Shown here one piece after another: positions 1,336-57,083 of a stretch of 64,000 bases of DNA (positions are counted from its first letter, which is position 1; the number at the start of each line of letters is the position of its first letter). This DNA comes from Bispira polyomma (taxonomy: Eukaryota). The stretch spans positions 40,610,001 to 40,674,000 of the forward strand of contig OZ287751.1 in the NCBI GenBank assembly GCA_965649765.1, read 5' to 3'. Below the pieces are notes generated by a model. The model saw only the letters and a program-made list of their open reading frames with translations. It was not told the origin of the DNA and ran no database searches. Made by a program: the position numbers and the translations under genes.

Positions 1336-1494
1336 TCACAACAATGTCCCATTTAAGAAGATTATTATTGTAGACAAAACCAGTGACAGTAAACAGTGTC
1401 TTAATGGACTTCCAGCTGATGTTGTGTGCTGTTCCTCTGCTGCTTTGCTCTGTTCTGGTTTGAGGTTACACAGACTAAGGATACGAACAGGAAC
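1336..1494 (-). CDS. Last coding exon (6/6) of a cysteine-rich, putative GPI-anchored protein
   Basis: Acceptor atcttccag|GTT, phase 0. Encodes VPVRILSLCNLKPEQSKAAEEQHTTSAGSPLRHCLLSLVLSTIIIFLNGTLL*. Small residues (TSAGS) followed by a hydrophobic C-terminal tail resemble a GPI signal. Confidence 0.8.
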   Translation of the reverse strand, partial: VPVRILSLCNLKPEQSKAAEEQHTTSAGSPLRHCLLSLVLSTIIIFLNGTLL

Positions 1495-1977: not shown

Positions 1978-2074
1978 CTGTGCATTAAGTAGGCCACAGT
2001 ACAGCTGTGCAGCATGTTGACCACAAGGACCAGTGAGGGAGTCTTCTATACAGGTCAGAAAGATGTTGTACTGG
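1978..2074 (-). CDS. Coding exon 5/6 of the cysteine-rich protein
   Basis: ccttttgcag|C CAG TAC ... GCA CAG|gttagt; 97 nt, phase 2->0. Encodes QYNIFLTCIEDSLTGPCGQHAAQLYCGLLNAQ. Phases match both neighbours. Confidence 0.85.
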
Positions 2075-2878: not shown

Positions 2879-3020
2879 GTGCAAAGGCTGTGTTTGAACT
2901 GATCCGGTGGCACCTCTGTGATCTGATGGAGAAGTATGGCCATGTCTGTGTAGAAGGTTTCCTTGCACCGTTTCACCGCTGCCGTGTGTGTCATGAAGCA
3001 GTCTTCATGGCTTTGGTAAG
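2879..3020 (-). CDS. Coding exon 4/6 of the cysteine-rich protein
   Basis: cgttgtag|CT TAC ... TGC AC|gtatgt; 142 nt, phase 1->2. Encodes (A)YQSHEDCFMTHTAAVKRCKETFYTDMAILLHQITEVPPDQFKHSLC(T). Confidence 0.85.
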
Positions 3021-3960: not shown

Positions 3961-4235
3961 GATTGGCCATTGATCTACACTCACCCACAAAAGAGTAAGT
4001 ATCCACACAGGGTTTGACCTAGTCCTGCTTGTAAGACTGACTGTAAGTTGGGGGGTTGGACTGGTGATAGATCTACACTCAAGCACCAAAGATTTAGTAT
4101 CCACACATAGTCCTGCTTGAAAGACCAAATGTAAGTTGGGGACTGGATTGGTCGTAGATCTACACTCACCCACAAAAGAGTTGGTATCCACACAGAGTTG
4201 ACCTAGTCCTGCTTGTAAGACTGACTGCAAGTTGG
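3961..4235. repeat. Three diverged ~88-98 bp copies of the exon 3 3' end plus its splice donor
   Basis: Motif gatctacactc...tatccacaca...tagtcctgcttg..aagac...aagttgg recurs at about 3972, 4069 and 4157. Confidence 0.85.
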
Positions 4236-4318
4236 TTCCTATGTCTAGACTGCCAACAGGAGCTTTCTCACACCTTTGATGTAATCGTTGTATACACTGG
4301 AGTGAGTTGTAGTAGGCC
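4170..4318 (-). CDS. Coding exon 3/6 of the cysteine-rich protein
   Basis: taactgccag|G GCC TAC ... TTT GTG G|gtgagt; 149 nt, phase 2->1. Encodes AYYNSLQCIQRLHQRCEKAPVGSLDIGTNLQSVLQAGLGQLCVDTNSFV, which lies inside ORF 3808..4410. Confidence 0.85.
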
Positions 4319-6207: not shown

Positions 6208-9200
6208 CAGTGTTCGAAACTGCCGCCTGCCCGCAAGCGGTCGGCTTGCTACTTTTAAATTGGGCAGTTATCTTTACAGAGTTGCAAGCCCGCTGTGCTT
6301 GTAAGTTAAGATAAGAATTAAATTTAAAAAAGACGTTTCGCAACGGATTTCTCTTTATTTTGAAGCATCGCCATTGCTAGCTTGTCATTTTGTAAATATA
6401 GTTTCGACTCGTCAGAATTTGGGGAAATCCCCCATTGGAAACAGCGCGTAACGAAAGCTAGAAATACTTATTGGAAACGCTACAGGAAGAGCTTTTGATT
6501 AATACCATAAACAGGAAACCCCCACTGGAAACAGAGCGTAGCGAAAGCTACAAAGACTTACTGGAAACGCTACAGGAAGCGCTTTTAATGCTGACTCGAA
6601 ACATCGCGAACCGAAACTAATGGCAGTTAATGGAAAAGCAGTAGAAGCACCACCTAGCGAGTTGGTTTAGTACTTCATTTTGTAAATAACGCGGGATCGA
6701 TAGGCGGTAATCATAAGAGATAAAAGCAATCCCAGGCTTGATACAACAGCTGAATCATCATGGCAAATCAAGCCACACTTTTTTCTTTTTTGGAAAAAAA
6801 TGTTCAGGCAGAAGATCCAGAAACCAAAAAGAGAAAGCTTGAAGAACAAAAACCAAAAAAAAATCAACTGATTATGAAAAAAATATAAGGAAAAGAAATC
6901 CTAAAACCACATGGACCACAGGTAAAATGCTCCTTTGAAACAAATCTGTGTATTATGAATACACTACTACTTTTGATCATAATTCAGCCACCTGTCATAA
7001 ATCGGCAATCATACAACAAATGTGTCATAATTTTAAATTAATTACATTTGTTGGCCTAACTATACTGTACTTCCTCAAAGATTAGTATTGTGAATCCTAT
7101 AGTCCATTTTGTACCAAGACTGGGAATAATTACCATTTAAAATGTGACAGCCGATTTAAAACTGGCGGCCGAATTATAACCAGAGGCAGTACACTGTCTT
7201 TTCAGTCAATAAATATTATTAAATGAATTGCCAAGTTAAAGTGGTACAAGGTTTTAAAGTGGGTGGTCTTAATTGTATGATTGTATCCTCTGTCACTCTG
7301 TGTTTAAGGCCAGTTTTAAGGTAGGGTAAAATTTCTTGACATTTTAAACTTAAGCAAAAAATATCAAAAAACGATTGACTAAAGGCAGATTTAGTTCTTA
7401 ATACATAATATTTGTGTGTTCAAATTCATATAAATAATCAACAAAGAAAAATGGCCCGTGTAGATTTTAAACTCATAATAAAATATGCACTAAATAAAAT
7501 GTAAGGTCAACAAAACCTTATGACCTTATCATTTGTATTTTAGAATTTAATTGGCTCCTAATCAGCCCACAAGACCGGAAAATGTACTGCAAGCTATGCA
7601 GGCAGATTTACGGACCACTTGGAGAAATAAGCAGAAAGAAGGGAGACTCTAACAAGTTAACAAAAGCTGCGTCGGGAGCTTTTGTTGTTGGTTGCAGTAA
7701 TATCAAACATGATGCATTAGTTGTACATGGTAGATCAATTAGTCATAAAGATGCAGTGCAGTGGGTCAATGCTCGCAATGCTCTACCAGGAGAGTCTAAA
7801 GCCGAAAAAATGTTACAGCAAATGAACCAAAGTGTGTTTAATAAACTTGATAAATTATTTAGAAATGCACATGCCATAGCCAAACACTGTCGGCCATTTA
7901 CTGACTTTTGCTGGATGGCAGAACTTGATGAAGCTAAAGGGATTGACTTAGGCAAAACCTATCTTAATGACAAAAACTGAGTTTTTATACATTCTGTTGT
8001 GGAAATTGAGAGGCAAAAGGTCCACGTTATGGTGAACAGAGCAATGTATTTTACAATACTGTCAGATGGGTCTAGTGATGTTTCAGTTATCGAGAACGAG
8101 ATTGTTTACATACGCTTTGCAAGTAAAGGTGAAATTTACACATTTTTTGCTGGACTTGTGGCAGTAGAGAAAGAAAATGCGACAGGAATTTTTGCAGCAA
8201 TACAGAAAGGCCTGGGCTATATAAAGCCAACAGACTTACCACTTCCAGATTTGATGAAACGAGTCATTGCATATTGCAGTGATGGTGCATCAGTAAATAC
8301 TGGACAAATTAATGGGGTTATTGCTTTGATGAGGAATAAAATTGCACCAAACATTATCCTAATCAAATGCTTAGTACACCGATTGGAATTAAGTTACAAA
8401 GATGCAATGAAAGGACTGAAAATTCACGAGAAACTGATGTCAATGCTTTCTTCATTGTATGCATTCTACCACAGGAGTCCTCTAAATTGCAGTAACCTGA
8501 AAAATGCAAATCGAACTTTTGGCCAAAAGGAAGTGATGCCGCTACGTGTTGGGGGAACTGGATGGATGTCACATACTGCAAGAGCCCTCCAAAACTTTTG
8601 GGATGGATATGATTCATTTGTCCTTCACCTTGGTCAAATGTGTAGGATTTATTTTTAATATTTTACATTAACAATCATCACATAACTGTCACTTTGAAAC
8701 TTTTAAGTAACTAAGTTATAATTCAAATCAAAATTTTAAACAGAGAAACAAATCAACAGCAAAACTGAATAGCTATGGCCAACAGCCTGGCAACAGGATT
8801 CTTATACTAAATGATAAATATGCTAAGCAAAAAATGCCAATTAAAAAAACTATGCTAAATAAAATACATTTTTGATATTTTCAACAGTCTTAACCATAAT
8901 GAGTATATAAAACAAAAAACAGTAATAAATAGTAATGATTGTTATAAATAAATATAAAATAAATTTTTATCAAAAATGTGTAAACCATTCTTTTGTAAAA
9001 CCAGGTGTCTCAAGACGGTGATGGGAAAGCAAGAACTAAAGCCCAGGCTATCCTCAAGTTGATGACATTGAAAAGTGTTATTGTGTTTGGCCTCTTCATT
9101 CATGATGTCCTGGCAGTGTTGCAAGGCTTGTCAGTTGCACTTCAAGCGAAAGATGCCACCCTGCATGATTGTCATCACAGACTGAAAGTGGCGTCTGTTT

Positions 9201-11066
9201 CATTGGAAAAACTAAAATCCAGGTAAAATTGCAGTCCTGACACTCCTGTACATATGTAGAGCTGCATACAGACGTTTTTGGTTTGACCTTGTAATCTAAA
9301 ATGTGACCTTTCTAAACAATTGAAATTTATTATATGAAATTTACAGTCACAATCATAAAGTGTCAGTGCAAAAAATTAAACGCAATGAATTTATTTGTGA
9401 GCAAAAAAAAGTTTCTAAAATTTTCTGTTTACATTTAGCCCTGGGTTACACTTGCGAAAGATCGATGAAACTGTAGCCGATGACTTTATGGGTCATTCTC
9501 TGTCTGGGAATTTGATGATGTTTACATCTGCCCGAGGAAAACTGATCGAGCAACTGGTTAATTCTATAAAAACAAGATATCAAGATGTTGATGAAAATGT
9601 CCTTGGTGCTGCAAGGCTTCCATCACTCAAGACCTGGTCTGTTACTCTGGAATCTGGTGAGTTTATTATGTTTATATATAACAATTTCAAATGCAAAAAT
9701 AGTCTATAGTGAGTCTATAGTGAGCCAAAATTATGTTGGGTAGACTGGTAACTAAAAATTGATGAAGTCCATTGTAATAAGATTATAGTAAGTTAATTTG
9801 CTTGTCACTTAATATTTGTTTTATACTATGTTATATTTAGATTTTGGTGATGACCATATCTCCACAGTAGTTGATCATTTTGGTACAAATCTTCAGTCAG
9901 CAGGGGTTAATCTCCAACTCATTCAAAGTGAATGGGACAGCCTAAAGACACTGCTGTATGAAACGTATGTATACAATTAAAATGCTAAACTAAAAATATG
10001 CCTATAATATAAATACAAACGAAAATATATATATATGAATTATAAATATAATATAGTATTTTATGGTATTAATAAATATGTATTATATGTATAGATAACA
10101 ATAATATGTATAATTAAACAGTATAAATAACAATGTATGGTACAATAAATTAAAAATGCAGAAAATTGCTGGGAGCCAACAATACAAAAGTAATACCTGA
10201 AAGGAAACAGAATAAGTAACTAAGCCTTAGCTGCCTTAACTGACTCAACTTAAATATTTATTAAATATTTTTTATATTGTTTTTTCATCAAGCCAAATAC
10301 CACAAGAGTTGACCTGGCCCAAAATCAATGATGCCTATGCAGATGGTCACACAAACATCTTGCCTGTAATAGATTTGTTACTCAGTTTGCCAGCTAGCAC
10401 AGCTGAATGTGAGCGAGGTCTCTCCAGAATGAAAAATACAAAAAATTGCTATAGAAATAAGCTACATGCAACCACCATGACTGATTTGATAGCAGTGTAA
10501 CTACATTCACCAGAAGTAGCAAAGTTTGACCCTGTGCAATCTATCCATCACTGGAATGCAACATCAATGCACAAGAGACGTCCTGAGTACCGAGATCAGA
10601 CCGCCGCTACTGGGTCTGCTGATAATGAAGTCAGTATAGAATGGGCAACTGTCCCTGGGCAACTTTCAGAAGCTGCAGAAGCTGGCCCTTCTAACACTGA
10701 ACCAGATGTTGCTGAGTCAGCTGAGAATGATTTTTCAGACTACGAATCTGATTACAGCAGCTACACAGTGACAATGAATTGTCTGATGAATCAGGAACAG
10801 ACTAGCAGCATTGTAAATTAGTAACATTGTCCCTATATATGTGACATTACAGACATGACAAGTTTATAGCTTGAAAAGTAATTAGCTTGGAATAAATTTT
10901 TTTTTGATTATTATACATGGAGGCCACAATACACATATAGGCCAGCTGTTTCAAGGACTAATATTGGTCAGACTACTGGGCAGGGAATCTCTGGCCTGGG
11001 CTTGTAACTTTTAAGAGGTACCAGCCCACTGGGTATGCAACTTTTTGGTGGTAGTTTCGAACACTG
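6208..11066 (+). mobile_element. hAT DNA transposon (ZNF862-like transposase), full length with TIRs, intronic and antisense to the host gene
   Basis: TIR cagtgttcgaaact(gccgcc) at 6208 and (ggtggt)agtttcgaacactg ending at 11066: 14 bp perfect, 18/20 overall. Flanks cataaaag/ggtaaaag form an imperfect 8-bp TSD. Subterminal ~89-bp direct repeat at 6425-6590. Confidence 0.92.
6800..10821 (+). pseudogene. Spliced hAT transposase, inactivated by stops (exons ~6800-6921, 7544-8637, 9005-9222, 9439-9656, 9841-9964, 10293-~10800)
   Basis: Zn-finger-like FNWL...MYCKLC; catalytic motifs LSDGSSD, YCSDGASVN, CLVHRL and the dimerisation-domain PASTAECERG. GT-AG junctions are phase compatible except for a degenerate donor near 8638. 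Stops at 7978 and 10498. Confidence 0.85.
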
Positions 11067-12441
11067 GGTAAAAGGACCACTGTCCTCATTTATATCAGAC
11101 TTTACTACCTTCTATCAATATATCACTTACTTACAGATAAAAGACCACTCTCCTCACTTATATCAGACTTTACTACCTTCTATCAATATATCACTTACTT
11201 ACAGGTAAAAGACCACTGTTCTCACTTATATCAGACTTTACTACCTTCTATCAATATATCACTTACTTACAGGTAAAAGACCACTGTTCTCACTTATATC
11301 AGACTTACTACCTTCTATCAATATATTCCTTACTTACAGGTAAAAAACCACTGTCCTCACTTATATCAGACTTTACTACCTTCTATCAATATATCACTTA
11401 CTTGCAGGTAAAAGACCACTGTCCTCACTTATATCAGACTTTACTACTTTCTATCAATATATTCCTTACTTACAGGTAAAAGACCACTGTCCTCACTTAT
11501 ATCAAACTTTACTACCTTCTATCAATATATCACTTACTTACAGGTAAAAGACCACTGTTCTCACTTATATCAGACTTACTATCTTCTATCAATATATTCC
11601 TTACTTACAGGTAAAAAACCACTGTCCTCACTTATATCAGACTTTACTACTTCCTATCAATATATTCCTTACTTACAGGTAAAAGACCACTGTCCTCACT
11701 TATATCAGACTTTACTACCTTTTATCAATATATCACTTACTTGTAGGTAAAGGGCCACTGTTGTCACTTATATCAGACTTTACTACCTTCTATCAATATA
11801 TTCCTTACTTACAGGTAAAAGACCACTGTTCTCATTTATATCAGACTTTACTACTTTCTATTAATATATCACTTACTTGCAGGTAAAAGACCACTGTTCT
11901 CACTTATATCAGACTTTATTGCCTTCTATCAATATATCACCTACTTACAGGTAAAAGACCACTGTCCTCACTTATATCAGACTTTACTACCTTCTATCAA
12001 TATATCACTTACTTACAGGTAAAAGACCACTGTCCTCACTTATATCAGACTTTACTACCTTCTATCAATATATCACTTACAGGTAAAAGACCACTGTCCT
12101 CACTTACATCAGACTTCACTACCTTCTATCAATATATCACTTACTTACAGGTAAAAGACCACTGTTCTCACTTATATCAGACTTTACTACCTTCTAATAA
12201 TATATCACTTACTTGTAGGTAAAGGACCACTGTCCCCACTTATATCAGACTTTTCTACCATCTAATAATATATCACTTACTTGTAGGTAAAAGACCACTG
12301 TCCTCACTTATATCAGACTTTACTACCTTCCATTAATATATCACTTACTTACAGGTAAAAGACCTCTGTTCTCAGTTATATCAGACTTTACTATCTTCTA
12401 TCAATATATTACTTACTTGCAGGTAAAGGACCACTGTTCTC
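11067..12441. repeat. Tandem array, 68-bp unit, ~20 copies (exon 2 3' end plus splice donor)
   Basis: Unit acaggtaaaagaccactgttctcacttatatcagactttactaccttctatcaatatatcacttactt; acaggtaaaa at 11201 and 11269 gives a period of 68. Confidence 0.97.
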
Positions 12442-12558
12442 TAGTCAGAGAGCCCACCACTGAGATGTTACTGAGTGTCTCCATAGGGTCAATGCATTGT
12501 TCAGCCTCCAGGGCCAAACTGACCATGTCCTGACAGTCAGCTTGTGATTGTACACCAC
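12417..12558 (-). CDS. Coding exon 2/6 of the cysteine-rich protein, sandwiched between two tandem arrays
   Basis: tattttatag|GT GGT GTA ... TGC AA|gtaagt; 142 nt, phase 1->2. Encodes (G)GVQSQADCQDMVSLALEAEQCIDPMETLSNISVVGSLTREQWSFTC(K). Its middle is the only unique sequence between the 68-bp and 36-bp arrays. Confidence 0.8.
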
Positions 12559-13750
12559 CTATAAAATACAGACCAGCTTGTGATTGTACACCATCTATGA
12601 AATATACACCAGCTTGTGATTGTACACCATCTATAAAATACAGACCAGCTTGTAATTGTACACCATCTATAAAATACAGACCAACTTGTGATTGTACACC
12701 ATCTATAAAATACAGACCAGCTTGTGATTGTACACCACCTATAAAATACAGACCAGTTTGTGATTGTACACCACCTATAAAATATACACCAGCTTGTGAT
12801 TGTACACCACCTATAAAATATAGACATGCTTGTTTTTCTACACCACCTATAAAATCTAGACCAGTTTGTGATTGTACACTACCTATAAAATACGGACCAG
12901 CTTGTGATTGTACACCACGTATAAAATATAGACTCGTTTGTGATTGTACACCACCTATAAAGTATAGACCAGTTTGTAATTGTACACCATCTATAAATAC
13001 AGACCAGCTTGTGATTGTACACCACCTATAAAATACAGACCAGTTTGTGATTGTACACCACCTATAAAATATACACCAGCTTGTGATTGTACACCACCTA
13101 TAAAATATAGACATGCTTGTTTTTCTACACCACGTATAAAATATAGACCAGTTTGTGATTGTACACCACCTATAAAATACAGACCAGCTTGTGATTGTAC
13201 ACCACGTATAAAACATAGACCAGTTTGTGATTCTACACCACCTATAAAGTATAGACCAGTTTGTAATTGTACACCATCTATAAATACAGACCAGCTTGTG
13301 ATTGTACACCATCTATAAAATATAGACCCGTTTGTGATTGTACACCATCTATAAAATATAGACTAGTTTGTGATTGTTCACCATCTATAAATACAGACCA
13401 GCTTATGATTGTACACCATCTATAAAATATAGACCAGTTTGTGATAGTACACCACCTATAAAATATAGACTAGTTTGTGATTGTACACCATCTATAAAAT
13501 ATAGACCAGTTTGTGATTGTACACCATCTATAAAATATAGACCAGTTTGTGATTGTACACCACCTATAAAATATAGACCGGTTTGTGATTCTACATCACC
13601 TATAAAATATAGACCAGTTTGTGATTCTACACCACCTATAAAATATAGACCGGTTTGTGATTCTACACCACCAATAAAATATAGACCAGCCTGTGATTTT
13701 ACACCACCTATAAAATAAAGACCAATTTGTGATTCTATATCTCCTAAAAA
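12537..13750. repeat. Tandem array, 36-bp unit, ~33 copies (splice acceptor plus exon 2 5' end)
   Basis: Unit cttgtgattgtacaccacctataaaatacagaccag, period 36, with three 35-nt units near 12995, 13280 and 13388. The variant acatgcttgtttttcta at ~12824 and ~13111 shows an 8-unit block duplication. Confidence 0.97.
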
Positions 13751-16700
13751 CACAGAAGACTTGAATTCCCATACACTTTAGTTACAGAGTAGTTACCTCA
13801 CTCAATCTATCAAATAAATACCAGTATAATATCGAATGTTGGCAAAACTAGCCCACCTCAAATGTAACTAAAATGCAGACATTACATGTTCATGTCGAAA
13901 TATCAAATAATATCCATACTAAATATGTTTGGTTCTAACAAAAATAGATTTGGAGACTTAAAAACCCTTTTTCTACATTCTGTACCACAATGGCATACAT
14001 TGCATGTGTGATGATGTATCGTTCATCTCAAAAGTAAAACCTCAACCTCACATATATTATAACAGTTCAATTTTTTTTCATGCAGAATCCCTATTGGTAT
14101 TTGTATTTTAGATTTTTTTAACATGCTCTATTGATGCAAACTCTCTTCTAAAAGCACAGCAACAGAATCGGTTAACCAATAAAAAAGTCCAAAAACATAG
14201 TCAACATATACAAAAAAAACACATACAAAACATACAGCTTTTGATTATTTAGTTATTCCTCACCCTCTCTCTCCCTCCATTTATATCACATACATAACAT
14301 TATAAACTAACCCCAGTATTTATCGTTGAACCTACTTGACCACCTATCCATCCAACTAACTCTCCTAACCTTTTGAGCAGGTATAAAAATCCCCCATTAT
14401 TATTTCAAACAACAGTTTTAAAAGTTGTTAATGTGTTACATCTTTGCTGTGAGTGACTCATATGTTTTCAGACATGATGAATATTGACAATATTTTACTT
14501 TTTTGGGGGGGGGTCAGACAAACATCATATTCTTGTTTTGTAGTGAACCTTGCAGCATGTGACACATTCCCATCTTCTATTTCCTAAAGGTCATCACTTA
14601 TAGGTCTTCCGATCACCTGTTGTACACACACATTTCTTTCCACCAGACTTGAACTTTGTTCTTGCTCGTGTTTTCTGACGTAAACTGTACACCTGGATTT
14701 TATATATATATTGGTTATATATATAAATTTTAAAAGGTTAACACGTTTGACTGACATTCAGTCCGAATCTCAAAGAATAAAACCTCAAAAGTTTCAAAGT
14801 CTAAATTTATTACCTCAAGGAATATATTTTCTCGAAAATGTGTTCATACTTTAGCAGATTATACTTGGATTATGTAAAACGTCAAAGATGACAAAATTAC
14901 ACAGGCTTGTTTGAGCCTCTCGTTGATTTATTTTTGTTGTTCGACTAAGCAAAGGGTTTTTTCTCTAGGATGTGTAATTTAACAAAATATCAAACCATGT
15001 CAAGACGGGTTGCCACTGTAAATTTAACTTGCCCTTTTGCAGTAATGAATTGACAAAGGGTATGCAACAAAAAGGCCAGCATCACCTCAAAGGGTTCTTT
15101 GGTCTTAACATCAGGGGCTTGTATTTATTGAAAGTCTTAAACTTAAACTGATGCTTAAACACAAATAAAACATATAAAATAACCTAGGCATGTAACCATT
15201 CATTTTAATAGAACTTTCAGCCAGGAACTCCAATAACACATATAAAATAACCTAGACATGTTACCATTTATTTAATAGAGCTTTCAACCAAGAATTCAAA
15301 TTTGAAGGCAGATTTTTTACAAGTCCAGTGCCAGACTTAACCTACTTAACCAACATTAATGTTATTTAACATTTTACTTGTATACCTAAATCATAGTGGG
15401 GACCATTAATAGTTTTTCATGTTAAATATTTAACATTTATTTAAAAATGTGTTTATATTTGAAATTATTATAGTTTTTAAAGATATTTTAAGATAAAGTA
15501 ATATTTTAAGTTACTTTACTTTAAGTTTCAGTCTAAGTTAAAATTGGGAATTCTTAGTTGTCTGCACGTACAGGTGGAGTGTCTGATATTTATATATATA
15601 TATATCACCCTTAACCAAATGTCAAAGTTAAATTGATAGACTTGACCTATAGTCAATTCTGCAATAAAATGTTTTATGGCTTTTTGCCTATTGTCTGGTA
15701 CTGCAAGAGTTCATTGCTACCATTTACCTACATTTACTTTTGTCTTATTTTGCAAGTCATGATGATTGCTCCAGGTACTGGATGACATTTCCAACTTGTA
15801 ACTTACTACGCATGTATTCAGAATGAAAAGAGCACTCGGTAGATGACATACCTCCGCCCAAAGATGTCACAGTGACAAATCATCCAAAGATCCTACCTAA
15901 TTATGCCTAGGTGGAATATACAAGGTTCGGCCCCTGGAAAGGCTATGTTATTAAATCGAAGATAATAATCACAATTTTTATGTGTAAAAAAAGAAAGTCC
16001 AGCTGAAACACAAGGAAAAATAAAAAATACTTGTTGCTTGTTTAGGGTTTTGTCTTTTATGGGGGGGGGGGGGGGGGGGGGTCAGCTACGTCACTTTTAA
16101 TCACTCAGGTCATATTGCGATTGCCAGATTTAATGCTAAAAGAAACTGTAAAATTTGATGAACTTTTTTGGATCAGTTCAGGTTTGTATTTAAAACATTT
16201 GATCTGGGGTTGTTGTTTTTTTTTTTATGAAATAAACAATTAACTTTAATCCAGAAAAACTTGGTGGATTAAATTTGGATCATCAAGAATCTAATATTGC
16301 TGACAGGAGATGTTTGAGGGAAGAAGAAAAATACAAAAAAAAAAAACAGATCAAATATTTGATATTTTCTGATCAAGCCCCCAGGATATTTTCATTGTTT
16401 CCTGAAAAGCACAAACGTTATTAAGCCATAAGCTTCTAACCCTGTTACTTTTAGTATGTATTTATTTACAAGACATCGGTCAAAGGGAGTATATCATTCA
16501 ACTGATCCACCAAGTGACAAAGAGAAAGGACATTGAACGGAAGATAAGCATATGCATGTGCAAGTAGACGACATCAGTCAGACCTGATCAAACAGAGAAG
16601 AGCACCTTAAATGTGACAAATGAATGTATAATTATCACACATTTTTAACCTTATTATTTTTTGCACTGTCCTCTCCATTTCCAACAATGAACAAAATATT

Positions 16701-16894
16701 TTCTGGCATATCATGCAAGAAAAGACAGGTCTATTTGATTATAAAGAAAGATCTAAGCCCTTGTCTAACTCTATTGGCATGGGTATATATGTCCTTAAAA
16801 TAACTTCTAACAGATCTGTACTGTTCAAAGTAACTGTTTGAAGTGACTGATTACACCTACACCTCAATAGGAATATTCTATTTATCAGATGTCT

Positions 16895-16985
16895 GCCACT
16901 GTGGCCTAGTTGGTAACACTCTTACGAAACCCAGTCTGGGGCCACCAAGGTACAGGTAGAAGATACAGGTGGCTCAAATGAATAT
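16895..16985 (+). mobile_element. Short tRNA-derived SINE fragment; inverted relative at 29382-29480
   Basis: ccactgtggcctagttggtaacactc (A-box-like) ... ggtacaggtagaagatacaggtggctc. A reverse-complement relative lies at 29382-29480. Confidence 0.5.
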
Positions 16986-18589
16986 GAGTATGACAACCCC
17001 CTCAGTTTGATTGGGTCAATTACTTCAAACAAAATCCATGAAGGCGTTACTTAGATATTTCCAACATGGCCACGCCATTTTAAAAATAAAAAATAATATT
17101 ATGCTGTGACTGATAAAAATAAGAGAAAAACAACAGCAATAAGAGTATGATCCCCTATATTGTCATCTGTTTAGGCCACAATACTATTTTTAGTTTTCTG
17201 TTTTTAGATGTCAAGCGATATAAGAGGTTTAGCTGTGACTTAATTGGCGCCGCTGTAACATTTTTCAGCTGCAGTAGATCCTACTGACGAAATGCCATGG
17301 AGGTGTAAAAGTAAAGATTGCAGTAATAACTGTCCTCCCACTATAGATTGTACTGAGTGCCTAAACCTACCCTTCCATGTCACCGATCCCTACCTCGGTA
17401 GATTTGATATTGTATTGTATTTTACATTTTCCTTACGTCCTATTGATGTGAGGCATTTTCTAAAGTGCAACAACAGAATCAGTTGACCAATAGAGAAGTT
17501 CAAAAACAGAGCAAAGGACATAAGTAAAGATGCAGGGTGGTCCAGGGAGGGAACTAAAGGGGGGAAGTAAGTTTGAAGAGATAGGTTTTAAGCTCTTTCC
17601 TAAACCCAGAAATTGTAAAGAACCTTGCAGATGTTGATAAATGATCACCTATAAATCTCTGTATTCAGTTGACTGCTAGATGGCTGTATTTGTGCAGTTA
17701 AGACACAGTCTATTATCCACTTAAGTAGTGGTTCCATATTCAAGTTCGATCGGCAACATGGGCCCAATTTTAAGATCGTGGCAGTCGTGGCGAAAAAGGC
17801 GGAAAAATGAAAGTGTGGGGTGACCTTGCAGATCGAAGTGATTGCGTCCCGTTTTGACAGCAACGACAACATCAAACTTGAAGTCCGTACTAAAACTGAC
17901 CTAGCCTCCCGCCCTAGAATCAAATGTATTGCCAATAGGATTTGACGGATCCATAGCCTCAATCATCAGGATCAAACGTCTAAAAATCAAAGTCGGGACT
18001 GTTATGGTAAAATACCAGGAAAAATGGTATTATATTCTTTCCAACCGCCCCGCTCCGCCCTATCCCCCCCCCCCCCCAACCTAATTTTTTAACGAGCCAG
18101 TGTTAGAAGAGGCCTGGAGTGAGATAAGACCTATCAGACAGAACGTATTGACAATCCGATCAAACTTATTCACCAAAGCAGACCTTTCCATTTTTAGAGG
18201 TCAGGGAGGTGAATCGGTTTACTTTTAAAAATATCAAACCTGTTCGATCCCGACCACAGCGACCACCCCATTTTCACCCTTGGACCTCCAGACCTCAAAA
18301 TTGGCAAGGTCGGGGACCAAATCGGCAAAGTGGGACCAACATTTAAGAGAGAAGCTATGTTGCGTGTACAAATACATCATGTCTTGGATGGCCACTAAAA
18401 AATATCCACCAGTGGCAAGCTAAAGTAACCTTAGGATATTGATAAATATTGTCATTCTTAAGACTTGCTCTTCAGTGTTGTATGCTACATGACTATACCT
18501 GTGCAGGTAAAAATATGGTCCAGTCAAAATATGGTTTGACCCACCACAAATTGCAACAGTGAATGGTAAATTAGCACTTTGAGTCCTAG

Positions 18590-30301: not shown

Positions 30302-30425
30302 CTGTACAATGTACCATCACTATCCACACAAGCAGTAGCCTAACTGAACAAAAGCAGTTTTTTCCCCCAAGATGACACTTCTTCTTCAGAAAGGTAAAAT
30401 TACACAGATTCCCAGAATCCAACAT
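30302..30425 (-). CDS. Probable first coding exon (signal-peptide exon) of the cysteine-rich protein
   Basis: ATG at 30425; MLDSGNLCNFTFLKKKCHLGGKNCFCSVRLLLVWIVMVHCT followed by G|gtaaga (phase 1, compatible with exon 2). The hydrophobic stretch precedes GGVQS-Q, a plausible cleavage site. Assignment across a 17.7-kb intron is inference. Confidence 0.55.
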
Positions 30426-36101: not shown

Positions 36102-38655
36102 ACCCCTGATCTACTATGCCGATTATTGCCCCCGATGATTACGATTATAAGATCGGGGTAATTATCAAGGAGGTTGTGAGATTCCAAAGACTCTTTGTTT
36201 CTAATCGGGGAGGCCACTGAGGTGTTCAAACATGTTTGATAACCTCTGCAAGCAGGGGCAAATATGGGTGGCACGGCCAATCAATCAGGGCCAATCGGGG
36301 CCAATCGTAACCTACTAACGACTTATGGTTACCTTCTAACGAGCTATCTTTTCAATCTTCCCCTAAATCATGTGAAATTCATCCCGACTTATCTTTCCAT
36401 CAAAAAGATAGTTCAGGTGCCATTAGGAATTATCTTTTCACCCCCCCCCCCCCCCCCCCTGGAGTTATTGAGTTATTTGTCAGACCCTTTGTTTTCCTCC
36501 GATTGAAAAAATAACTGAAGGATAAGTCATTTGGGAAGCCCTGATCGAAAAGATAGGTCGGGCCAAACAAAGGATAAGTTGCTGGTGCCAGCCAATTGAA
36601 AAAGTAAAGTTCTGCTCTGGCAAGGGATTGGACATGGAAGAAGTGAAGAAGTGGTTTCAGTCACAGAGGACAATCTATGGCATCAGGAAGTCCGGCCAGG
36701 CAACATCTGAGTTGAGCACTGGGTGAAGAACACTTCGACTTTTTTAAACCTCACATCTTACGACATGTCTCGAGAACGTCTGGCTATAAAGCCATCGCAC
36801 CTGCCTCTTTGTCCCGGGCTCCTGGAGAATCATCGACTCCCAAGGTGGGGTTTAAGTCAGACACAGACCAGGGCGCTGAAACAGAGATGGAGTCTTCCTT
36901 GCTGGTAGCATCCCCTGGGAGTACTTCAAAGCAGTCTTCAGTTTGTGTCAGATCAACCCCGAGGCAGCACTGTCTAATGAGCTGAAGGACATGCTGGCCA
37001 TATTGCAGGACACCATTTCAGGCTTCTTCAAGGACGCTATCAAGCCCAAAGCTGAGGGACCCAGGGGGCATTTCTCAACTGGTTGACATTGGAGGCCGAG
37101 ACTAAAATCCTAAAAGCATTTTCGACCACCCTTCAGCGTCTTGAGTTGCTGTAATTGTATTTTTATAAACCAAGTCTTTAGAGCAAATGCGTCATCTCCC
37201 AGGATGAAGTAGGGGACAGGGGCTCTGACGGGGCTAATGGTTTCAAGGGGGGAACTGATTGAGTGGTACTCTTTTTTCTCCTGCAGTTCAGATCTGTTAA
37301 AAATCTGGGCATCCGCTTGAACCTATGTCCCACAGGAAACGGTAATCCCCATCTACCTGGGTAAGCATGACAATTGAGTTACACCCCTTTTAGTTGAAGA
37401 ACTCGCTCCCACCTTTTCTCAGGCATCTAATAGCAATGTGTTTGCCATCTATGGCCCCACCCTCCCACCTACCCTCACCCACCCCCCAGGTTATTGGTAA
37501 TGTTCAACGTGTTCCAGAACATGGACTAGTCCTTCTTCTAGTCATCGGGGCTGGTGGGGCATGTGAGAAATTCTTTCTGGTACTTCTCGATGATTGCCTG
37601 GCAAACTTCTGGCACAAACTTGGTTATGGTTGACCTGCCCACTATGAATGAGTACTGCACCAATGTGTAGGACTCCCCAGTAGCCAAATGCCTCAAAGTG
37701 ATGGCTATCTTAAGTCCAGGGGTCAGTGCCTTCCTGTACCAGGTGGTGTGTCTCTGTATCCCATTCCTCACCCTCCTCTCCATCTCCTGGAATACGTCAG
37801 GGGGCATCCTGAGGAAATTGCGGTATGACTGGAGATCTTGCTGCTCCAGGCATGGCATGAGTGATGTGTAGTGTCAATGTTCTGCCCTTTCCTGAGTCAT
37901 GGCTTGATCCAGAACCTTGGCCTTGCCCTTCGTCTTCTGGCCACATGAGCCTTAGGCTGTGGATTCAGTGTTTCCCTTTGCCTTCTTAATCATCTTATGC
38001 TGCCTTCGATGTTCATATTAACCATCAGTTGTGCTTGCATGTAGGCAATTACAGCCCTAAGTACATTTGCTAGATTTATTATTCTTTGTGAAATCATGTT
38101 GATCACTTGACTTCGGAATTTAAATTGTTTGATTTAAGTTTGAACCCTCGTTTATATAGCGTTTGATTGAAACGGTACCTGCCATTTGTTATTACGAAGA
38201 TTTTGATCTAGATCAGCCATTCTATCGGCAGACTTATTTTAGTGTCCAACGACTAGATTGTAACGCCCTTACGACTTATCTTTTGGATCATAAGCAGTTC
38301 CAACAACATATCTTTGGCAATTGGGGAGGTCGGGAGCCCAAAAATGTGATCCTGACGACTACTTGGGCCGATCGATCGTAACGCTAACAACTTCTTGGGG
38401 GGTTTGGGGATTCCAACAACTTATCTTTACCAATCGGGGATGTTGGGAGCCAAAAAATGTAATCGTGAATACAAATTGGCCCAATTGATCGTAGTGCTAA
38501 CGACTTATCAGGGTGGTTATTTGACCTATCTTACAGATCGTGGTGGCGCATTTCTTCCGCCCTTTTTTAAAAACATTGCGGGGAAATGCTAAGGATTGCT
38601 CACGATTGCATAATCAGGGCCTCTCCCTGACCGTTCGTGATAGTGGAACAGCACC
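36102..38655 (-). mobile_element. Decayed PIF/Harbinger DNA transposon
   Basis: Contains a HARBI1-like transposase remnant. Right end ...gatagtggaacagcacc; the left end is only weakly complementary (13/21). It appears nested in a tacggagccc-type non-autonomous element that starts near 35953. Confidence 0.75.
36880..38097 (-). pseudogene. Harbinger (HARBI1-like) transposase pseudogene
   Basis: RRRARPRFWIKP; YRNFLRMPPDVF...KIAITLRHLATGESY...GRSTITKFVPEVCQAI (ORF 37538..37858); then AIDGKHIAI, DAQIFN, FILGDDAFAL and VVENAF, the DDE motifs, with stops and frameshifts. Confidence 0.85.
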
Positions 38656-39188: not shown

Positions 39189-39221
39189 GCATCGTGGTTC
39201 AGTGGTAGAATGCTCGCCTGC
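39189..39221 (+). other. 5' half of a tRNA-Gly(GCC)-like sequence, not a complete tRNA gene
   Basis: gcatcg-tggttcagtggtagaatgctcgcctgc matches the invertebrate tRNA-Gly(GCC) 5' part as I recall it (GCATCGGTGGTTCAGTGGTAGAATGCTCGCCTGCC) with one G missing. It ends in the anticodon; no T-arm or B-box follows. Confidence 0.8.
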
Positions 39222-39224
39222 GAG

Positions 39225-39500
39225 GAAATCATAAAGGATTCTTGTTTACATTCCTTTACAAAATTTTAGTACACTGGTTTTAATATTGATTGTGTCATTC
39301 ATATAGTATTAACATTGATCTATATTACTGTAACATTACAAAACACACAAAGGACGCGGATGAGGAAATGATAAAGGATTCTTGTTTACATTCCTCTACA
39401 AATTTTAGTACACTGGTTTATATTGATTGTGTCGTTGATATAGTATTAACATTGATTTATATTACTGTAACATTACAAAACACACAAGGACGCGGATGTT
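39225..39500. repeat. ~140-bp tandem duplication in the YR element leader
   Basis: ataaaggattcttgtttacattcc...cacaca(a)aggacgcggatg at 39231 and 39371. Confidence 0.9.
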
Positions 39501-39587
39501 TACATTTTGTCTCTATGTTTTAGTGTACTGTTTGTAGTCTTTTCTATATGTATTGTGCACTATATTACTGTAACATTACACATTACC

Positions 39588-41178
39588 ATGCCTAAAGTCA
39601 AGGTATATGGTTGTACCAAGTGTCTCACGAGGCACACTCGTCTGGTTGGCAGTAAATGCCAGGTTGGGTTGTCCGAAGATTTGATCACAGAAGCGACTGT
39701 ATCCGATGAGGAAACTGTTGAGACTAGTCCGGTTGGCGTTGATAGTTTGGTCGTGGTTTCGGGACAAATATTAGCACAACTTCAGGCTATGGGCCAGTTG
39801 ATGGAAAAACTTGACCAGCGAGTGTCAGTAACGGAAACCACTCTAGCATCAAACGTGGCTAAAACACACGTGGCTGCGGCTACTGCTTCCAGTAACAATT
39901 CTGCCAGCTCGAGTGAGGAAATAACAAGTATTGAGAACACTGTTGTCCCGAGTGTACAGTTTTTAAAACAGAGCACTAGCATTCAGAACCAAGTTGAGTT
40001 AAGGCTAGCCGAGCTCGCACACCTCAACGAGAACCCGGTTAAAGGTAAGATCAAGTTTCAAAAAGGGGGGGGGGGGGGGTGTTGATGTAATAGTGAAGCG
40101 TGTGGTTGAATGGCCTCAAAATCATGTCCTCTCCGGAAATTTTAAAGCTAGACCGTGTTATGATGACTTAGCTCTGAACCAGTGGGTCTGCGGATTCACG
40201 CGTATAATACAATACAAGAAATCCCCCGAAACCAAAGAGATCATGTTTGACTACATGGCCGGACTGATGGAGGACTCCCAGGATTTTTCCTGGGAGGCCG
40301 GCAAAGCCTGCCATGCGGTTGTACTCACAACCTTGGAAATGGACAAACTTAAATGGAGCGACGTCGTCAAAATTGACCGGCTTAGGCGGGCACATGCGCA
40401 GAGGCATGGCTCTGGCAGTGGTAGCTCCCAGGGTTCACTTGCAAAGGGCGTTGGGAAGAATCAAACGTTTACTAAGTCGGGTACAGCTAATTGCAAATTT
40501 TTTCAAGATGGGTCTTGTAAGTACCCCAGTAGTCAAAAAACAGGCACCACTTTTTTTAAGCATGTGTGTGAATCCTGTAGTGGAGCTCACAAAACCACCA
40601 ACTGTAGTAGAAAATCAGCAAAAACTAAGGGGCACTGCAGAAATGCAGTGGCTGAGAATTTTGTCCATAGTGGACAGTTTTACAAGACTGATTTTCAGGA
40701 CTTCCATTTGTTCAGCAGACCTGCTAGTATCAATTCGCATGTAAATAAAAGTAGTAGGGCGAATAAATGTAGTTACAGCGAGGTATTGAATCGAACACGG
40801 GGTCCTGACACAGCAAACAAAAGTCTCTTAAGTACAAAGTGCCCCCCTAGGGATAATTTCAATGGTACACAGCAGGCCAGGCGGGGTAAACATTTCAAGG
40901 CCGGTGTTAAAACTAATTGTCGCAAACTCATTGTACCCTATAAGTTCACCTCACACAGTACCACCCTGCACAAAGGCAAAACTAGTGGGAAAAACACTGT
41001 ACAGGGGGAAACTGAGGGCAAACTTGTGAAAGCTGTTATTGAAGATACAAAGGCACATGTGAATGCAAGCAATGACTTCACTGGGGTCCCTGTTTACAAT
41101 AGATTCGAAGTGCTACAAGATATAGACCAAATTGACATTAATGTCTCAGAGAATCCCATTGGGTTCTACTGTGTGTAA
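39588..41178 (+). pseudogene. Gag-like ORF1 of the YR retrotransposon, frameshifted at a poly-G run (~40064-40079)
   Basis: ATG 39588 MPKVKVYGCTKCLTRH...C. After the G-run: VKRVVEWPQN...WEAGKACHAVVL...W and a C-terminal Cys/His knuckle CKFFQDGSC...HVCESCSGAHKTTNC, then a low-complexity extension. Confidence 0.8.
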
Positions 41179-43119
41179 TCAAAGAAATTATGCAAAAAGG
41201 GCTTGTAAAACAGGTTCTGTGAGAAACGTTAAGGCTCTTACAGCTACAACGGCTCCTTGTAGAAGCACTGACACTGATAATATTACAGAAAGTGTTGAAA
41301 CTGACAAGTATGCTTTTGAGCTGAAGCAGAAGGTAAATAAAAGGGAACTGTTGGACAGAGCAAAAACTTGTGAAACCTACCGTGCTTGGCGTGCTCAAAA
41401 TAAAGTGGCCTATGGCTTCACACCACTGTCAGACTTGGGCTGTAGGGTGTGGGACCATGGCTCTGTAAATTACAGCTCTGACATTTTAAAGATGCATAAA
41501 TTACTGCGGGAGGATGGCAGACAAAATTTCAAAGATTTGCAAATACCGGTCCTTTCGCAGCTAAAACCCGAAAAGTGGGTTCGGTATCTTAAGAATTACT
41601 GGGATTGGCAGTTACCGTTACTTATTAAGTACGGCTTTCCCCTCGATGTCAGTCGTGATAACATTGATCAGTCACATGAAGAAAACCACAAATCTGCCAT
41701 TGACTATCCCCAACACGTGGACACTTATTTTACTGAGGAATGCAAGTTCGGTGCCATACTGGGTCCGTTTGCCAACCCCCTATAGATAACATGCACTTTT
41801 CACCCATCATGACGCGCAATAAGTCCAGCTCAGCCAACAGAAGGGTCATTGTAGACCTCAGCTGGCCTATTGGTCGGTCCATTAATGCAGGGGCTTCCAC
41901 TTCTAAGTATCTGGGGACAGAATTTTTGTTGTCCTATCCTTTGGTGGATAATGTAACTAGGGAAGTGGCAGAGCTGGGCAGAGGTTGTCACATTTTTAAA
42001 GTAGATATAAGTCGCGCATTCAGGCACATGCCTATAGACCCGGGGGATGTGGATTTGCTTGGTTTAAAGTGGGGGTCCTATTATCTGGACAGATCCCTAC
42101 CCTTCGGATATCAGAATGGGTCCACAATCTTTCAGCGAATTTCTGACTCGGTCAGATATATTATGGCACAGGAAGGCTTCCATATATACGCTTATATCGA
42201 CGATTATCTTTGCGCTGCTCTCCCCAGTAAAATTGGGAAAATATATAACAGATTACAGGCTCTGCTGACAGAATTGGGCCTGACGGTCAGTCTCAAAAAA
42301 CTTGTTCCTCCCAGTACTGAGGTTATTTGCCTAGGTATTTTGATAAACACTGATACTTTTACAACTTCTATTCCAGCGGAGAAATTGGAGGAGATCAGAG
42401 CATTATGTAAGCACTGGGAGGGTAAGAGTAATTGTACCAAGAGAGAATTGCAATCACTGCTGAGGTCCCTTCTGTATGTGTCGAAATGCATAAAATATTC
42501 TCGGGTATACTTAAACCGCATGTTGCAAATGTTGAGGGATAATCATAGCAAGAAACACTTCCCTATCAGTAAGGACTTTAAGAGAGATCTCCAGTGGTTC
42601 CTCACGTTCATGCAGCAGTTTAATGGTATCAGTTTCTTTGCTCATAGACCAACACATGCCCAGATTGAGCTGGATGCTTGCCTGACTGGGATGGGGGGTA
42701 TCTATGATAACCAAGTCTATAAGCTTAATATTCCGTCGGACATGTCTCAGGACAATATAGCGTCCTTGGAAATGCTCAATATCCTTGTAGCCTTAAGATT
42801 TTGGGCTTCGTCCTGGCAGGGCAAGCGTGTACTTTTCAAGTGCGACAACCAGGCCGTTGTCAGTGTGTTGACCAATGGTCGCACACAAGACCCACTTTTG
42901 GCAACTTACTCTAGGAATATATATATGATAGCCAGTCAGTTTGACATCGACCTAAGAGTGATTCACATACTTAAAAATAAAGTGGCTGATTTATTATCCA
43001 GATGGGACAAGACTAAGGACAATTTCAGACTGCTGCATGAATGGGTGGGCCCAGTAGTATGGATTCCCACACACAAAGACCTGCTAAATGTTGATACTAC
43101 CATAGAGCATGTATATTAA
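41132..43119 (+). pseudogene. Pol (reverse transcriptase + RNase H) of the YR retrotransposon, one frameshift near 41775
   Basis: YGFPL...NHKSA...GPF | SPIMTRNK...RRVIVDLS, KVDISRAFR, LPFG, YIDD, CLGI, then RNase H D-E-D-D motifs. Confidence 0.93.
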
Positions 43120-43156
43120 TTTTTTTTTTTCTCTCTCTCTTTATATTTTATATTAG

Positions 43157-44058
43157 ATTCAAATCCAGTGGGTGCATTGCTTACCAAGTTGGCTTGTAAC
43201 AGACTGCACACAGCTTTTGCTGCTTCTACCTGGAACGCCTACAGCAGCATGTTCAGGCTTTTTCTGGCATTCAACATCTTCATGGATTGGCAAATAAATC
43301 AGGTGAATGCGTCCCAGTTACTTGCCTACTTGGAGTTTCTAAATTTTAACGGTGTGGCTCCTGATTGAGATTTTTTCTGATCCCAGAATGGCCTATTATA
43401 TAAAGGCCCTACTGGTCAATAGACTTCTTAAGGTCAACCTAAAAAGTCTCTTCGACATCCCCCTGCTCTTGAACCTCATGGAGAAATTTTTAAAGCTGTA
43501 TATCTTACCAGTTTCTTCAATTTTCTCCGACTCTCTAACTTGTGTCCGCATTCTGTGGCTGGATTTTCACATCTGAAACACCTGGCCAGGGGGGACGTCA
43601 TGTTCAAGCCTGGTTATGTTATCATACTGGTTAAATGGACCAAAATAATGCAGAAATAAGACTCGGTTAGGTTGCTTTCCCTTCCTGCTTTACCAGGTTC
43701 TATTCTATGTCCAGTAAAGGCTATCAGGGCTGCCTTGGCTCTTGCCCCCCCTGGCCCTAATGCTCCCCTGTTTCAATACAAACTCAATTCCACCTGGATC
43801 CCTCTGACGGACTCCCGTGTTCGTAGCCACTTAAAGAACGTCCTTCAGTCGCTAAAGTTAGACAATTCCAATCTCACTTTTCATGCTTTCCGACGATCAG
43901 GTGCCACGTTCGCCTTCAATAACAATGTTCCCTTACAGGACATTCAGCGTCATGGCACCTGGACGTCAGATTGTGTCTGGCGTTATATCACTGACTCAGC
44001 TCAGGTTGGCACCCAGGTGGCTGACTCCTTCCAGGTGGCTATACAACGTCTACACTAA
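43157..44058 (+). pseudogene. Tyrosine recombinase of the retrotransposon, fragmented
   Basis: N-terminal AFAASTWNAY...F...F; FLRLSNL (catalytic R), KWTK, CPV, HAFRRSGAT and HGTWTSDCVWRY. Frameshifts and a stop near 43656. Confidence 0.9.
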
Positions 44059-44279
44059 CTTGGTATTTGGTGGTCTGGGACAATTCATGTCCCCTGTGTA
44101 TGACAGAAAATGTTTTTCAACAAACATAAATACATTTGTTTGGGGCATAAGGTAACCTTACATTTGGCTAGTACATAATGTACTCATCCGAATTTTCTAA
44201 AACCCTAATATAATTTCAGTGAATGAATTAATGCTTTTACACTAAAATGTTAAACTTAACTTTATTCAAATTATCACTT

Positions 44280-54508: not shown

Positions 54509-55389
54509 AAAGATAACCAAATTATTGCATTCGTTGTCATTAAAATAATGATATATTCAGTGTTCACTTCCTTCAAATATGCAATTTTGAAAAAATGTCT
54601 ACATTTCCTGATCCATAAGATACACACCAATGATATTTTTGTCAGTTAGTAAGCCAAAGATAACCAAATTGTTGTGTTCGTTGTCATTAAAATAATGATA
54701 TATTCAGTGTTCACTTCATTCAAATATGCAATTTTGAAAAAATGTCTACATTTCCTGATCCATAAGATACACACCAATGATATTTTTGTCAGTTAGTAAG
54801 CCAAAGATAACCAAATTGTTGCGTTCGTTGTCATTAAAATAATGATATATTCAGTGTTCACTTCCTTCAAATATGCAATTTTGAAAAAATGTCTACATTT
54901 CTTGATCCATAAGATACACACCAATGATATTTTTGTCAGTTAGTAAGCCAAAGATAACCAAATTGTTGCGTTCATTGTCATTAAAATAATGATATATTCA
55001 GTGTTCACTTCCTTCAAATATGCAATTTTGAAAAAATGTCTACATTTCCTGATCCATAAGATACACACCAATGATATTTTTGTCAGTTAGTAAGCCAAAG
55101 ATAACCAAATTGTTGTGTTCGTTGTCATTAAAATAATGATATATTCAGTGTTCACTTCATTCAAATATGCAATTTTGAAAAAATGTCTACATTTCCTGAT
55201 CCATAAGATACACACCAATGATATTTTTGTCAGTTAGTAAGCCAAAGATAACCAAATTGTTGCGTTCGTTGTCATTAAAATAATGATATATTCAGTGTTC
55301 ACTTCCTTCAAATATGCAATTTTGAAAAAATGTCTACATTTCTTGATCCATAAGATACACACCAATGATATTTTTGTCAGTTAGTAAGC
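54509..55389. repeat. Tandem array, 147-bp unit, 6 copies, with trimeric higher-order structure
   Basis: agataacc at 54511, 54658, 54805, 54952, 55099 and 55246. Confidence 0.97.
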
Positions 55390-55802: not shown

Positions 55803-57083
55803 TTAGGAAACCTGCTGTAAAAATTCAGTGTATTTCTTTTCACAAGCATGAACCTTTTCTACAAAGTAGTCCACGTTTTTGGTACTTTCCAGCAAATCCG
55901 CTTGAACAAGACACATGTCTTCATATTTGGCAGTGTTCTTCAAAAGGACACTAGTGAATTCTGATTGGTCACCATCACTATGACGTAAAAGACGCAAGTC
56001 CACTATACTGTCGTCATCCGTTAGCCGAATGTTGTCGTCGAAGATGATATGTTGAACGCTATGGTCGTGGGTGTCCACCCAAAAGGGCTTTCCACAGGTA
56101 CTGGAATACGAATTGTTTTGCCAGTACAGGAAATCATCCACAAATGCATTTATCCCTGTCTGTTGACTTAGAAACTTATACATTTCTTTTTCATCTGTGA
56201 CGAAATATTGCTTGTCGCCTTGATTGATCTCCATTTCGATGTGCCCATTTTTCGGGCGTCGTATATGGCCTGGTTCCAGGTTGACTTCTATATCTGGCAA
56301 ACTGGGGAAGTCCACATGGTTCCCTTGCAGGCTATGGTCGATGGCTTTAAGCACGTTTGGGGCATCCATCCCATATGTACGGACCACAATAGCAAAGTCT
56401 CTGTTAGTGTCATGGAGATGCTGAATCAACTGAAACACGGCTGGCAGGATATAATGATACAGCTTGCCATCCTGCCCTTTCATTGTCAAAAGGTTATTGC
56501 TTTCTTTGTGTGACCATTGGAAAGCTTTCAATGCCTCGTCAAAATGGGGCCTGAAGTCCTGCCCAAAATCTTCTCGGGTAAAATCGCCGGTGTGTTGCCT
56601 GAGCAACCCTCGGTCCGTAGGCGTACGGACTAACTTCTTCTCTAGGTGTTTGTAATACGTAATACAGTTGGCCTCTGGAGCAGTGAGAGAGGGCTGCTTA
56701 CTGACCCACTGCCAACTTTGATCTTTCTCCTCATAACCCCAAGTCACACCGGTCAAATAACCGTTCAAAGCCTGCTCGACACCAATGGCCGTCACTGAAT
56801 CTGCCACAAGGATCGTATTTCGCACGTCAAAATGGAGTATTAACTTTCGACGCGATAACATCAGCGGCTTTTCTGGTGGGATTCTCCTTCCAGTTTTAGT
56901 ACGACAGTGTCTACCAGTGGGCGACTGGTCCTGTTTTGGTGAATCCCTCTGTAACTTACTGTCCGTTCTGTTATTAAATTGGAGATGATTTCGAGGTTGT
57001 AAGACAGCGGCTTTGCCAGATATTCCTTGTCCTAAAAGACTCCCATTTTCCATTCTTTGGGGACAACGCTTTTTGTTTTTCAT
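55803..57083 (-). CDS. Uncharacterised intronless 426-aa protein with HAD-like motifs (recalls the zebrafish si:dkey-32e6.3-type family)
   Basis: Intact 1281-nt ORF, GC-richer than its flanks. Motifs RKLILHFDVRNTILVADS, FAIVVRTYGMD, CGKPFW and QHIIFDDNI. Family link is from memory and unverified. Confidence 0.88.
   Translation of the reverse strand: MKNKKRCPQRMENGSLLGQGISGKAAVLQPRNHLQFNNRTDSKLQRDSPKQDQSPTGRHCRTKTGRRIPPEKPLMLSRRKLILHFDVRNTILVADSVTAIGVEQALNGYLTGVTWGYEEKDQSWQWVSKQPSLTAPEANCITYYKHLEKKLVRTPTDRGLLRQHTGDFTREDFGQDFRPHFDEALKAFQWSHKESNNLLTMKGQDGKLYHYILPAVFQLIQHLHDTNRDFAIVVRTYGMDAPNVLKAIDHSLQGNHVDFPSLPDIEVNLEPGHIRRPKNGHIEMEINQGDKQYFVTDEKEMYKFLSQQTGINAFVDDFLYWQNNSYSSTCGKPFWVDTHDHSVQHIIFDDNIRLTDDDSIVDLRLLRHSDGDQSEFTSVLLKNTAKYEDMCLVQADLLESTKNVDYFVEKVHACEKKYTEFLQQVS

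Follow-up and report, generated by a model that had tools for sequence, protein, structure and literature searches.

Exon 2 of a predicted gene in the 64-kb window (the whole stretch of DNA that was analysed) lies between two arrays that, as read from the sequence, are "mirage" minisatellites, in which the repeat unit straddles a boundary between an exon and an intron of the host gene. Every unit contains an exon edge together with the adjoining splice site, extra copies are found on the intron side only, and arrays of this kind sit on 8–10% of exon-intron junctions in a sample of dynein genes from the same genome. We consider it probable that the arrays consist of locus-specific copies, in tandem, of the acceptor and donor junctions of exon 2 itself, that they are neutral by-products, and that the spliceosome would skip them. 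The locus is an ordinary but large mirage pair, a large new example of a known repeat type; the main value lies in the junction bias that was measured.

Exon 2, its two arrays and the host gene

The preliminary description had placed a 142-nt exon 2 between two arrays derived from its own junctions, and this proved correct. The two flanking arrays, one with 33.3 copies of 36 bp and the other with 20.3 copies of 68 bp, are the largest of the window (Table 1). The acceptor unit comprises the last 15 intron nucleotides and the first 21 nucleotides of exon 2, and the donor unit comprises the last 25 exon nucleotides and the first 43 nucleotides of the following intron. One intact exon 2 is left: the arrays end inside it, at 12538 and 12441, the extra copies are intronic, and the frame stays open. 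AG is kept in 28 of the 32 upstream acceptor copies, and GT in all 18 pattern-matched donor copies. The acceptor array includes three 35-nt units and an 8-unit higher-order duplication (four identical unit pairs at lag 8 and none at the other lags from 1 to 12), which shows past unequal exchange within it. A search of the 1.035-Gb genome that skips simple repeats and common words matched each array only to its own locus; within the reach of that search, each unit is locus-specific and not a dispersed satellite. The two arrays likely arose independently.

Table 1. The host gene, its junction arrays and the transposon in intron 2 (positions within the window)
Feature	Position	Strand	Description
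Candidate first coding exon	30302..30425	minus	putative; signal-peptide-like hydrophobic stretch, phase-1 donor score 12.1
Decayed distal acceptor	13744..13760	minus	acceptor score 10.8; upstream unique intron continuous with it
Acceptor array (mirage)	12538-13734	minus	period 36, 33.3 copies, 88% matches
Coding exon 2	12558-12417	minus	predicted; 142 nt, AG...GT, phase 1 to phase 2
Donor array (mirage)	11067-12441	minus	period 68, 20.3 copies, 91% matches
hAT-type DNA transposon	6208..11066	plus	13-17 bp terminal inverted repeats; 8-bp flanks identical at 6/8
Coding exon 3	4170..4318	minus	149 nt; open frame, splice sites
Exon 3 donor triplication	3979..4198	minus	87 + 98 nt spacing, about 82% identity
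Coding exon 4	2879..3020	minus	142 nt; length and phases as exon 2; homolog P0123
Coding exon 5	1978..2074	minus	97 nt; open frame, splice sites
Last coding exon	1336..1494	minus	hydrophobic C-terminus and stop

The decayed distal acceptor is likely the ancestral end of the intron, beside the original branch-point region. Each acceptor unit holds 15 intron nucleotides, so the presumed acceptor of exon 2 would lie 1.2 kb from its original branch-point context. At the other edge, the authentic exon end (12417-12424) carries C where 13 of 18 donor copies carry T; the T makes a second GT 4 nt upstream, an out-of-frame competitor that the real end of exon 2 avoids. Three DNA runs of a single study, possibly on the assembly's own sample, have contigs that contain pieces of both arrays with 0–3 differences. 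These contigs break within the arrays, without joints, and none covers exon 2 itself, which makes them uninformative as to the exon.

Exons 2–6, all with canonical sites, join into a single stop-free frame of 229 codons, while the other two frames contain many stops. Their splice scores are ordinary by matrices trained on the same genome, and the AG and GT of exon 2 fall at the 80th and 54th percentiles among 605 dynein splice sites. The predicted product appears to be a secreted protein, rich in cysteine, that is built of two similar modules and ends in a hydrophobic tail, possibly of the GPI type. One of three matches to exon 4 was kept, P0123 (48% identity across the whole exon, same extent, E 5e-5); the other two, P0121 and P0122, were driven by repeats and discarded, and an alignment search with exon 4 found no homolog among 147 candidates. 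No homolog of exon 2 was found (4 candidates examined), exons 2 and 4 gave no BLAST alignment with each other, the atlas matches of exon 3 were all below 0.9 and unnamed, and Pfam returned no family above cut-off for exons 2–5 searched singly. The search for paralogs of the host gene gave no convincing case, its one match (E 0.53) containing a stop. The prediction of exon 2 rests on its reading frame and splice sites.

The hAT-type transposon, in intron 2, has inserted into the final donor unit, so this unit is likely older than the insertion. Its transposase is broken and intron-containing, with matches to PF25431 (E 1e-8) and PF05699 (E 1e-4), a C17orf113-type zinc finger and a hAT dimerisation domain, and its depth in the DNA contigs is several-fold or more above single-copy. 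Upstream, at 13621-17470, the depth of the DNA contigs is about half that over exons 3–6 in X1 and X2, and X3 also shows a reduction; this may be a haplotype-specific stretch of intron 1. Further along the window, plus-strand ORFs at 39200-44100 resemble gag, reverse transcriptase/RNase H and tyrosine recombinase of what we take to be a DIRS/Ngaro-type retrotransposon, and broken minus-strand ORFs at 36787-37873 resemble what is presumably a PIF/Harbinger transposase. An intronless minus-strand ORF of 425 codons (55806-57083) matched no Pfam family above cut-off, and an array of 6.0 copies of 147 bp with 97% identity (54509-55389) lies just downstream of it.

Junction arrays in the dynein heavy-chain genes

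The background frequency of such arrays was measured in dynein heavy-chain genes of the same genome. Thirty-two matches were grouped into 19 loci, of which 18 were used (the C3 locus was left out), with 70–130 kb taken per locus. Exons were located by an iterated profile built from homologs of a dynein of this genome, whose best named matches are from a priapulid, molluscs and a lancelet (76–77%). The 709 adjacent exon pairs yielded 605 contiguous, resolved introns (602 GT, 3 GC; 654 kb), and 104 pairs were dropped. Arrays were those reported by TRF with a period of at least 15.

Arrays cross 100 of the 1,210 junctions, 49 donors and 51 acceptors, and a further 223 are purely intronic. Uniform placement of the founder unit predicts 29.9 junction arrays, a 3.35-fold excess (z 13.9; z values treat arrays as independent, and the bootstrap given below is the safer figure). 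The fold is 3.48 in 463 high-confidence introns and 2.94 once sequence shared between loci is masked, a masking that is incomplete (35% of intron masked, with only 1.8 Mb compared). It is 3.95 for arrays of at least 4 copies and 2.16 for those with fewer than 3; 3.77 in long introns and 1.85 (z 5.8) in short ones (collapsed, <600 nt); and 3.05 for arrays of at least 90% identity against 2.37 for those below 85%. A TRF-free 24-mer test gave the same picture, with repeats at 120 of 1,210 junctions (9.9%) versus 3.0% of unique deep intron, a 3.3-fold difference with a locus bootstrap of 2.1–4.8 and a higher junction rate in 15 of 18 loci. The 24-mer profile has its maximum at the junction and is at background again by about 80–100 nt, and array edges are also more frequent at 5–100 nt into the intron (6.7 vs 3.8 per 10 kb). 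Only one wholly exonic array was found in 104.6 kb of exon. There is no acceptor preference among the dynein junction arrays (51 vs 49).

The junction bias is thus supported as a statistical pattern in this sample of one gene family with homology-based annotation, at about three times uniform placement or deep-intron controls. The preliminary description had suggested junction-centred duplication and a check for enrichment of arrays at exon-intron boundaries; the excess is there, and the suggestion stands as a pattern, although not as a demonstrated mechanism. A shortage of periods divisible by three was considered as a junction trait (19/100 divisible, p=0.002 vs one third) and rejected, because intronic arrays with a period of at least 30 give 32/133. 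Donors with arrays score higher than donors without (10.1 vs 8.8, p=0.018), a difference that carries little weight since site-picking favours the best nearby copy.

The rate of junction arrays is regional. Heterogeneity among loci is strong, from 0 to 21% of junctions per locus (0/100 to 16/78, p=5e-7): C6 (20.49 Mb) and C5 (30.26 Mb) have none at 100 and 92 junctions, and C8 has 16 at 78. For the gene in the window, the preliminary description had counted three amplified junctions among ten. The triplication at the exon 3 donor, with copies at 4169, 4082 and 3984 and GT lost in the middle one, is confirmed; the total of ten holds only if exon 1 is the putative exon in Table 1, the better of two candidates from a scan of everything upstream. 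Three of ten has P=0.04–0.07 at the background rate, calculated post hoc, and is near the rates at C8 and C4c (13/70). By eye, the dynein gene at G000:C4:72580001-72710000 has more junction arrays than the nine counted, introns beside unfound exons having been dropped. On C4 near 72,694,000, a dynein gene contains a 69-bp acceptor mirage of 5.9 copies within a 194-codon open frame, like the 36-bp array.

Against this background, the double-flanked layout of exon 2 is not special, since arrays on both flanks occur at chance frequency (5 of 519 internal dynein exons vs 3.5 expected under independence, P=0.27). What stands out is the size of the acceptor array. Six of the 100 dynein arrays have at least 15 copies, all of them donors; the largest, at C1:24424021-24430436, repeats 41 bp 157.6 times over 6.4 kb. 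The maximum among the 51 dynein acceptor arrays is 13.8 copies, and the 33 of exon 2 are extreme by comparison. Ten of these 51 have fewer than 20 intron nucleotides per unit, as does the exon 2 array. The nearest copy is in frame and stop-free in 4 of 49 dynein acceptor arrays; exon 2 has eleven AG-bearing copies of this kind beside it. These traits of the acceptor array weigh against the neutral account.

Origin and fate of the copies

We propose that a short duplication straddling the junction would arise more often at exon edges than elsewhere and would survive since one intact exon remains, wholly exonic duplications being purged. The array could then expand through unequal exchange or slippage. 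Splicing would take the first donor and the donor-nearest acceptor via exon definition, and the surplus splice sites would drift.

The dynein arrays document such drift. Among donor copies 447 of 481 keep the dinucleotide, as do 139 of 155 at acceptors, and when copies are compared with one another, matched by base and by array, minor alleles number 22 against 21.9 expected at donors (73 columns) and 11 against 12.5 at acceptors (56 columns). Splice dinucleotides in the copies therefore vary as often as neutrality predicts, a result that speaks against selected decoys; across the dynein arrays, splice signals are not conserved above the neutral rate. An apparent conservation of GT/AG (donor mismatch 0.028 vs 0.116) was discarded, as it was measured against the constrained authentic copy and is gone in the copy-versus-copy comparison. 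In 43 of 49 and 40 of 49 arrays the authentic site equals or exceeds the mean score of its own copies, and the adjacent copy is no weaker than those farther away (p=0.77 and 0.49). The intron share is larger in acceptor units (median 36 nt, vs 23 nt in donor units, p=0.001) and the exon share is equal (32 vs 32), which would fit a filter for keeping a branch point.

As to the cause of the excess, we favour a bias of origin over one of retention, and tentatively suggest that exon edges in this animal may be true hot spots for short tandem duplication, with a rate about threefold that of deep intron and the same for donors as for acceptors, hence a mirage on about a tenth of all junctions. Survivors would be filtered by selection, with acceptor units needing more intron. 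A candidate cause, and a guess on our part, is repair or recombination that begins within the conserved exon and slips at the point where the intron, being polymorphic, no longer offers homology.

If duplications instead originated uniformly, the junction excess would reflect turnover of the deep intron through young insertions and deletions, together with anchoring beside the conserved exon. The reduced excess in collapsed introns, the incomplete masking and the array edges raised inside the intron all agree with such an origin. However, arrays of at least 90% identity are at least as enriched as those below 85%, the reverse of what retention alone predicts (identity being a rough proxy for age); short introns are still enriched; and the profile peaks at the junction itself. 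We regard a uniform origin as unlikely.

It is much less likely that the gene is dead or exon 2 unreal, so that its arrays would be unconstrained. Five exons with canonical sites form one long open frame, exons 2 and 4 are alike in length and phases, the homolog of exon 4 has the same extent, and both arrays stop inside exon 2. These features outweigh the failure to find a homolog for exon 2 or 3, the lack of significant similarity between exons 2 and 4, and the transposon in intron 2.

The consequences of using the copies as splice sites bear on a further proposal of the preliminary description, that the arrays are a regulatory system of decoy U1 and U2AF sites that tunes inclusion; it is taken here as a selected system in which array length tunes inclusion of exon 2. 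Use of any downstream donor would read through the authentic donor into a stop at the next codon, and among the 18 donor copies scored, 5 tie with the authentic score of 9.4 and 13 are weaker. Among acceptors, the nearest 12 copies are in frame and stop-free, 11 of them with AG; farther up, the three 35-nt units shift the frame and one unit contains an in-frame stop, so that distal acceptors are frameshifted or reach a stop. Skipping of the 142-nt exon would itself shift the frame. Retention of the dinucleotide in most copies, at exon 2 as in the dyneins, and reported effects of some human repeats on splicing (CBS and 6-16 in the accessible part of PMC1557585; also, in the part seen, PMC10078293) would accord with decoys, but that retention equals the neutral rate of same-base neighbours, a comparison made on dyneins. 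Exons with arrays on both flanks are at chance frequency, and dynein genes carry such arrays on up to a fifth of the junctions of a locus. These comparisons do not support the decoy proposal, and we consider it highly improbable.

Several acceptor copies score 9–10, near or equal to the authentic 10.3, and the four nearest score lower (5.2–8.0). The 29 full-length units contain 27 distinct variants, 18 non-synonymous and 8 synonymous; the 27th was scored as a stop and reads as lysine, since the units that carry it also have a change next to it. The proportion of synonymous variants equals the neutral expectation of 0.29, so the acceptor array is not evolving as protein: there is no synonymous excess, and the frame is not kept throughout. 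That the proximal acceptor array is translated, so that repeats of 12 residues follow the signal peptide, is the least probable reading, for its open in-frame copies with scores near the authentic one are set against this absence of coding constraint, the frame-shifting units and stop farther up, and the lower scores of the four nearest copies.

One property of the acceptor unit deserves mention. It reads AG|GT and is thus formally also a donor; AG|GT is present in 20 of 32 copies and at the authentic site. Where AG is kept, the donor scores are 3–5, in the lowest few percent of the genome's donors, and no new intron is evident.

Relation to described junction-spanning repeats

In the accessible parts of PMC3087553, PMC3902484 and PMC1557585, mirages are described gene by gene, and the background rate measured here may matter more than the locus. 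No genome-scale enrichment test of junction-spanning arrays was found in the literature searched, whose scope excluded most subscription papers. An excess at junctions that is threefold and symmetric, in arrays whose splice signals drift neutrally, points to a bias, in mutation or in retention, at the edges of exons. Such a bias is relevant to how introns grow and are gained, and to errors of gene annotation in genomes of this kind. With its many near-identical sites, the acceptor array is also a natural system for assaying how a 3' splice site is chosen. If exon edges are indeed hot spots, its 33 near-equivalent acceptors, away from the original branch point, would make a ready test of last-acceptor choice.

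The exon 2 arrays belong to a repeat type already described in the available portions of PMC3087553 and PMC1557585. Lancelet globins and Adh3 carry tandem duplications of 5' and 3' exon boundaries, which apparently do not disturb splicing and whose origin is called unclear in the part of PMC3087553 at hand; troponin C and PGBD5 were added as cases, also with splicing reportedly undisturbed (PMC3902484, in part). The amphioxus examples (Adh3, BflGb6, BflGb9, troponin C, PGBD5) share with the exon 2 arrays boundary-spanning copies at both 5' and 3' edges, locus-specific units, and AG/GT kept in many but not all copies. The 10–72 bp range of units in Adh3 includes the 36 and 68 bp found here. BflGb6 has 3–6 copies, whereas exon 2 has long arrays at both edges (33 and 20). 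Normal splicing and length polymorphism are reported for amphioxus.

Human junction-spanning VNTRs, as covered in the accessible part of PMC1557585, include F7, CBS, 6-16, LMNB2 and PDGF, all at donors: F7 IVS7 has 5–9 copies of 37 bp, CBS IVS13 has 15–20 repeats, and 6-16 has 25 pseudo-sites. F7 is spliced at the first donor only, and two pseudo-donors are used in human CBS and 6-16. The 68-bp array resembles these VNTRs in that its first unit spans the boundary, the donor is repeated and copy numbers are similar. Exon 2 differs in also having an acceptor array, and the type occurs here on about 8–10% of sampled junctions. Finally, intron gain through a duplicated AG/GT proto-splice site, as modelled in the parts seen of PMC3265369 and also PMC3087553, starts from the same AG|GT configuration as the exon 2 acceptor unit, which is distinguished from it by very low donor scores and by the lack of an evident new intron.
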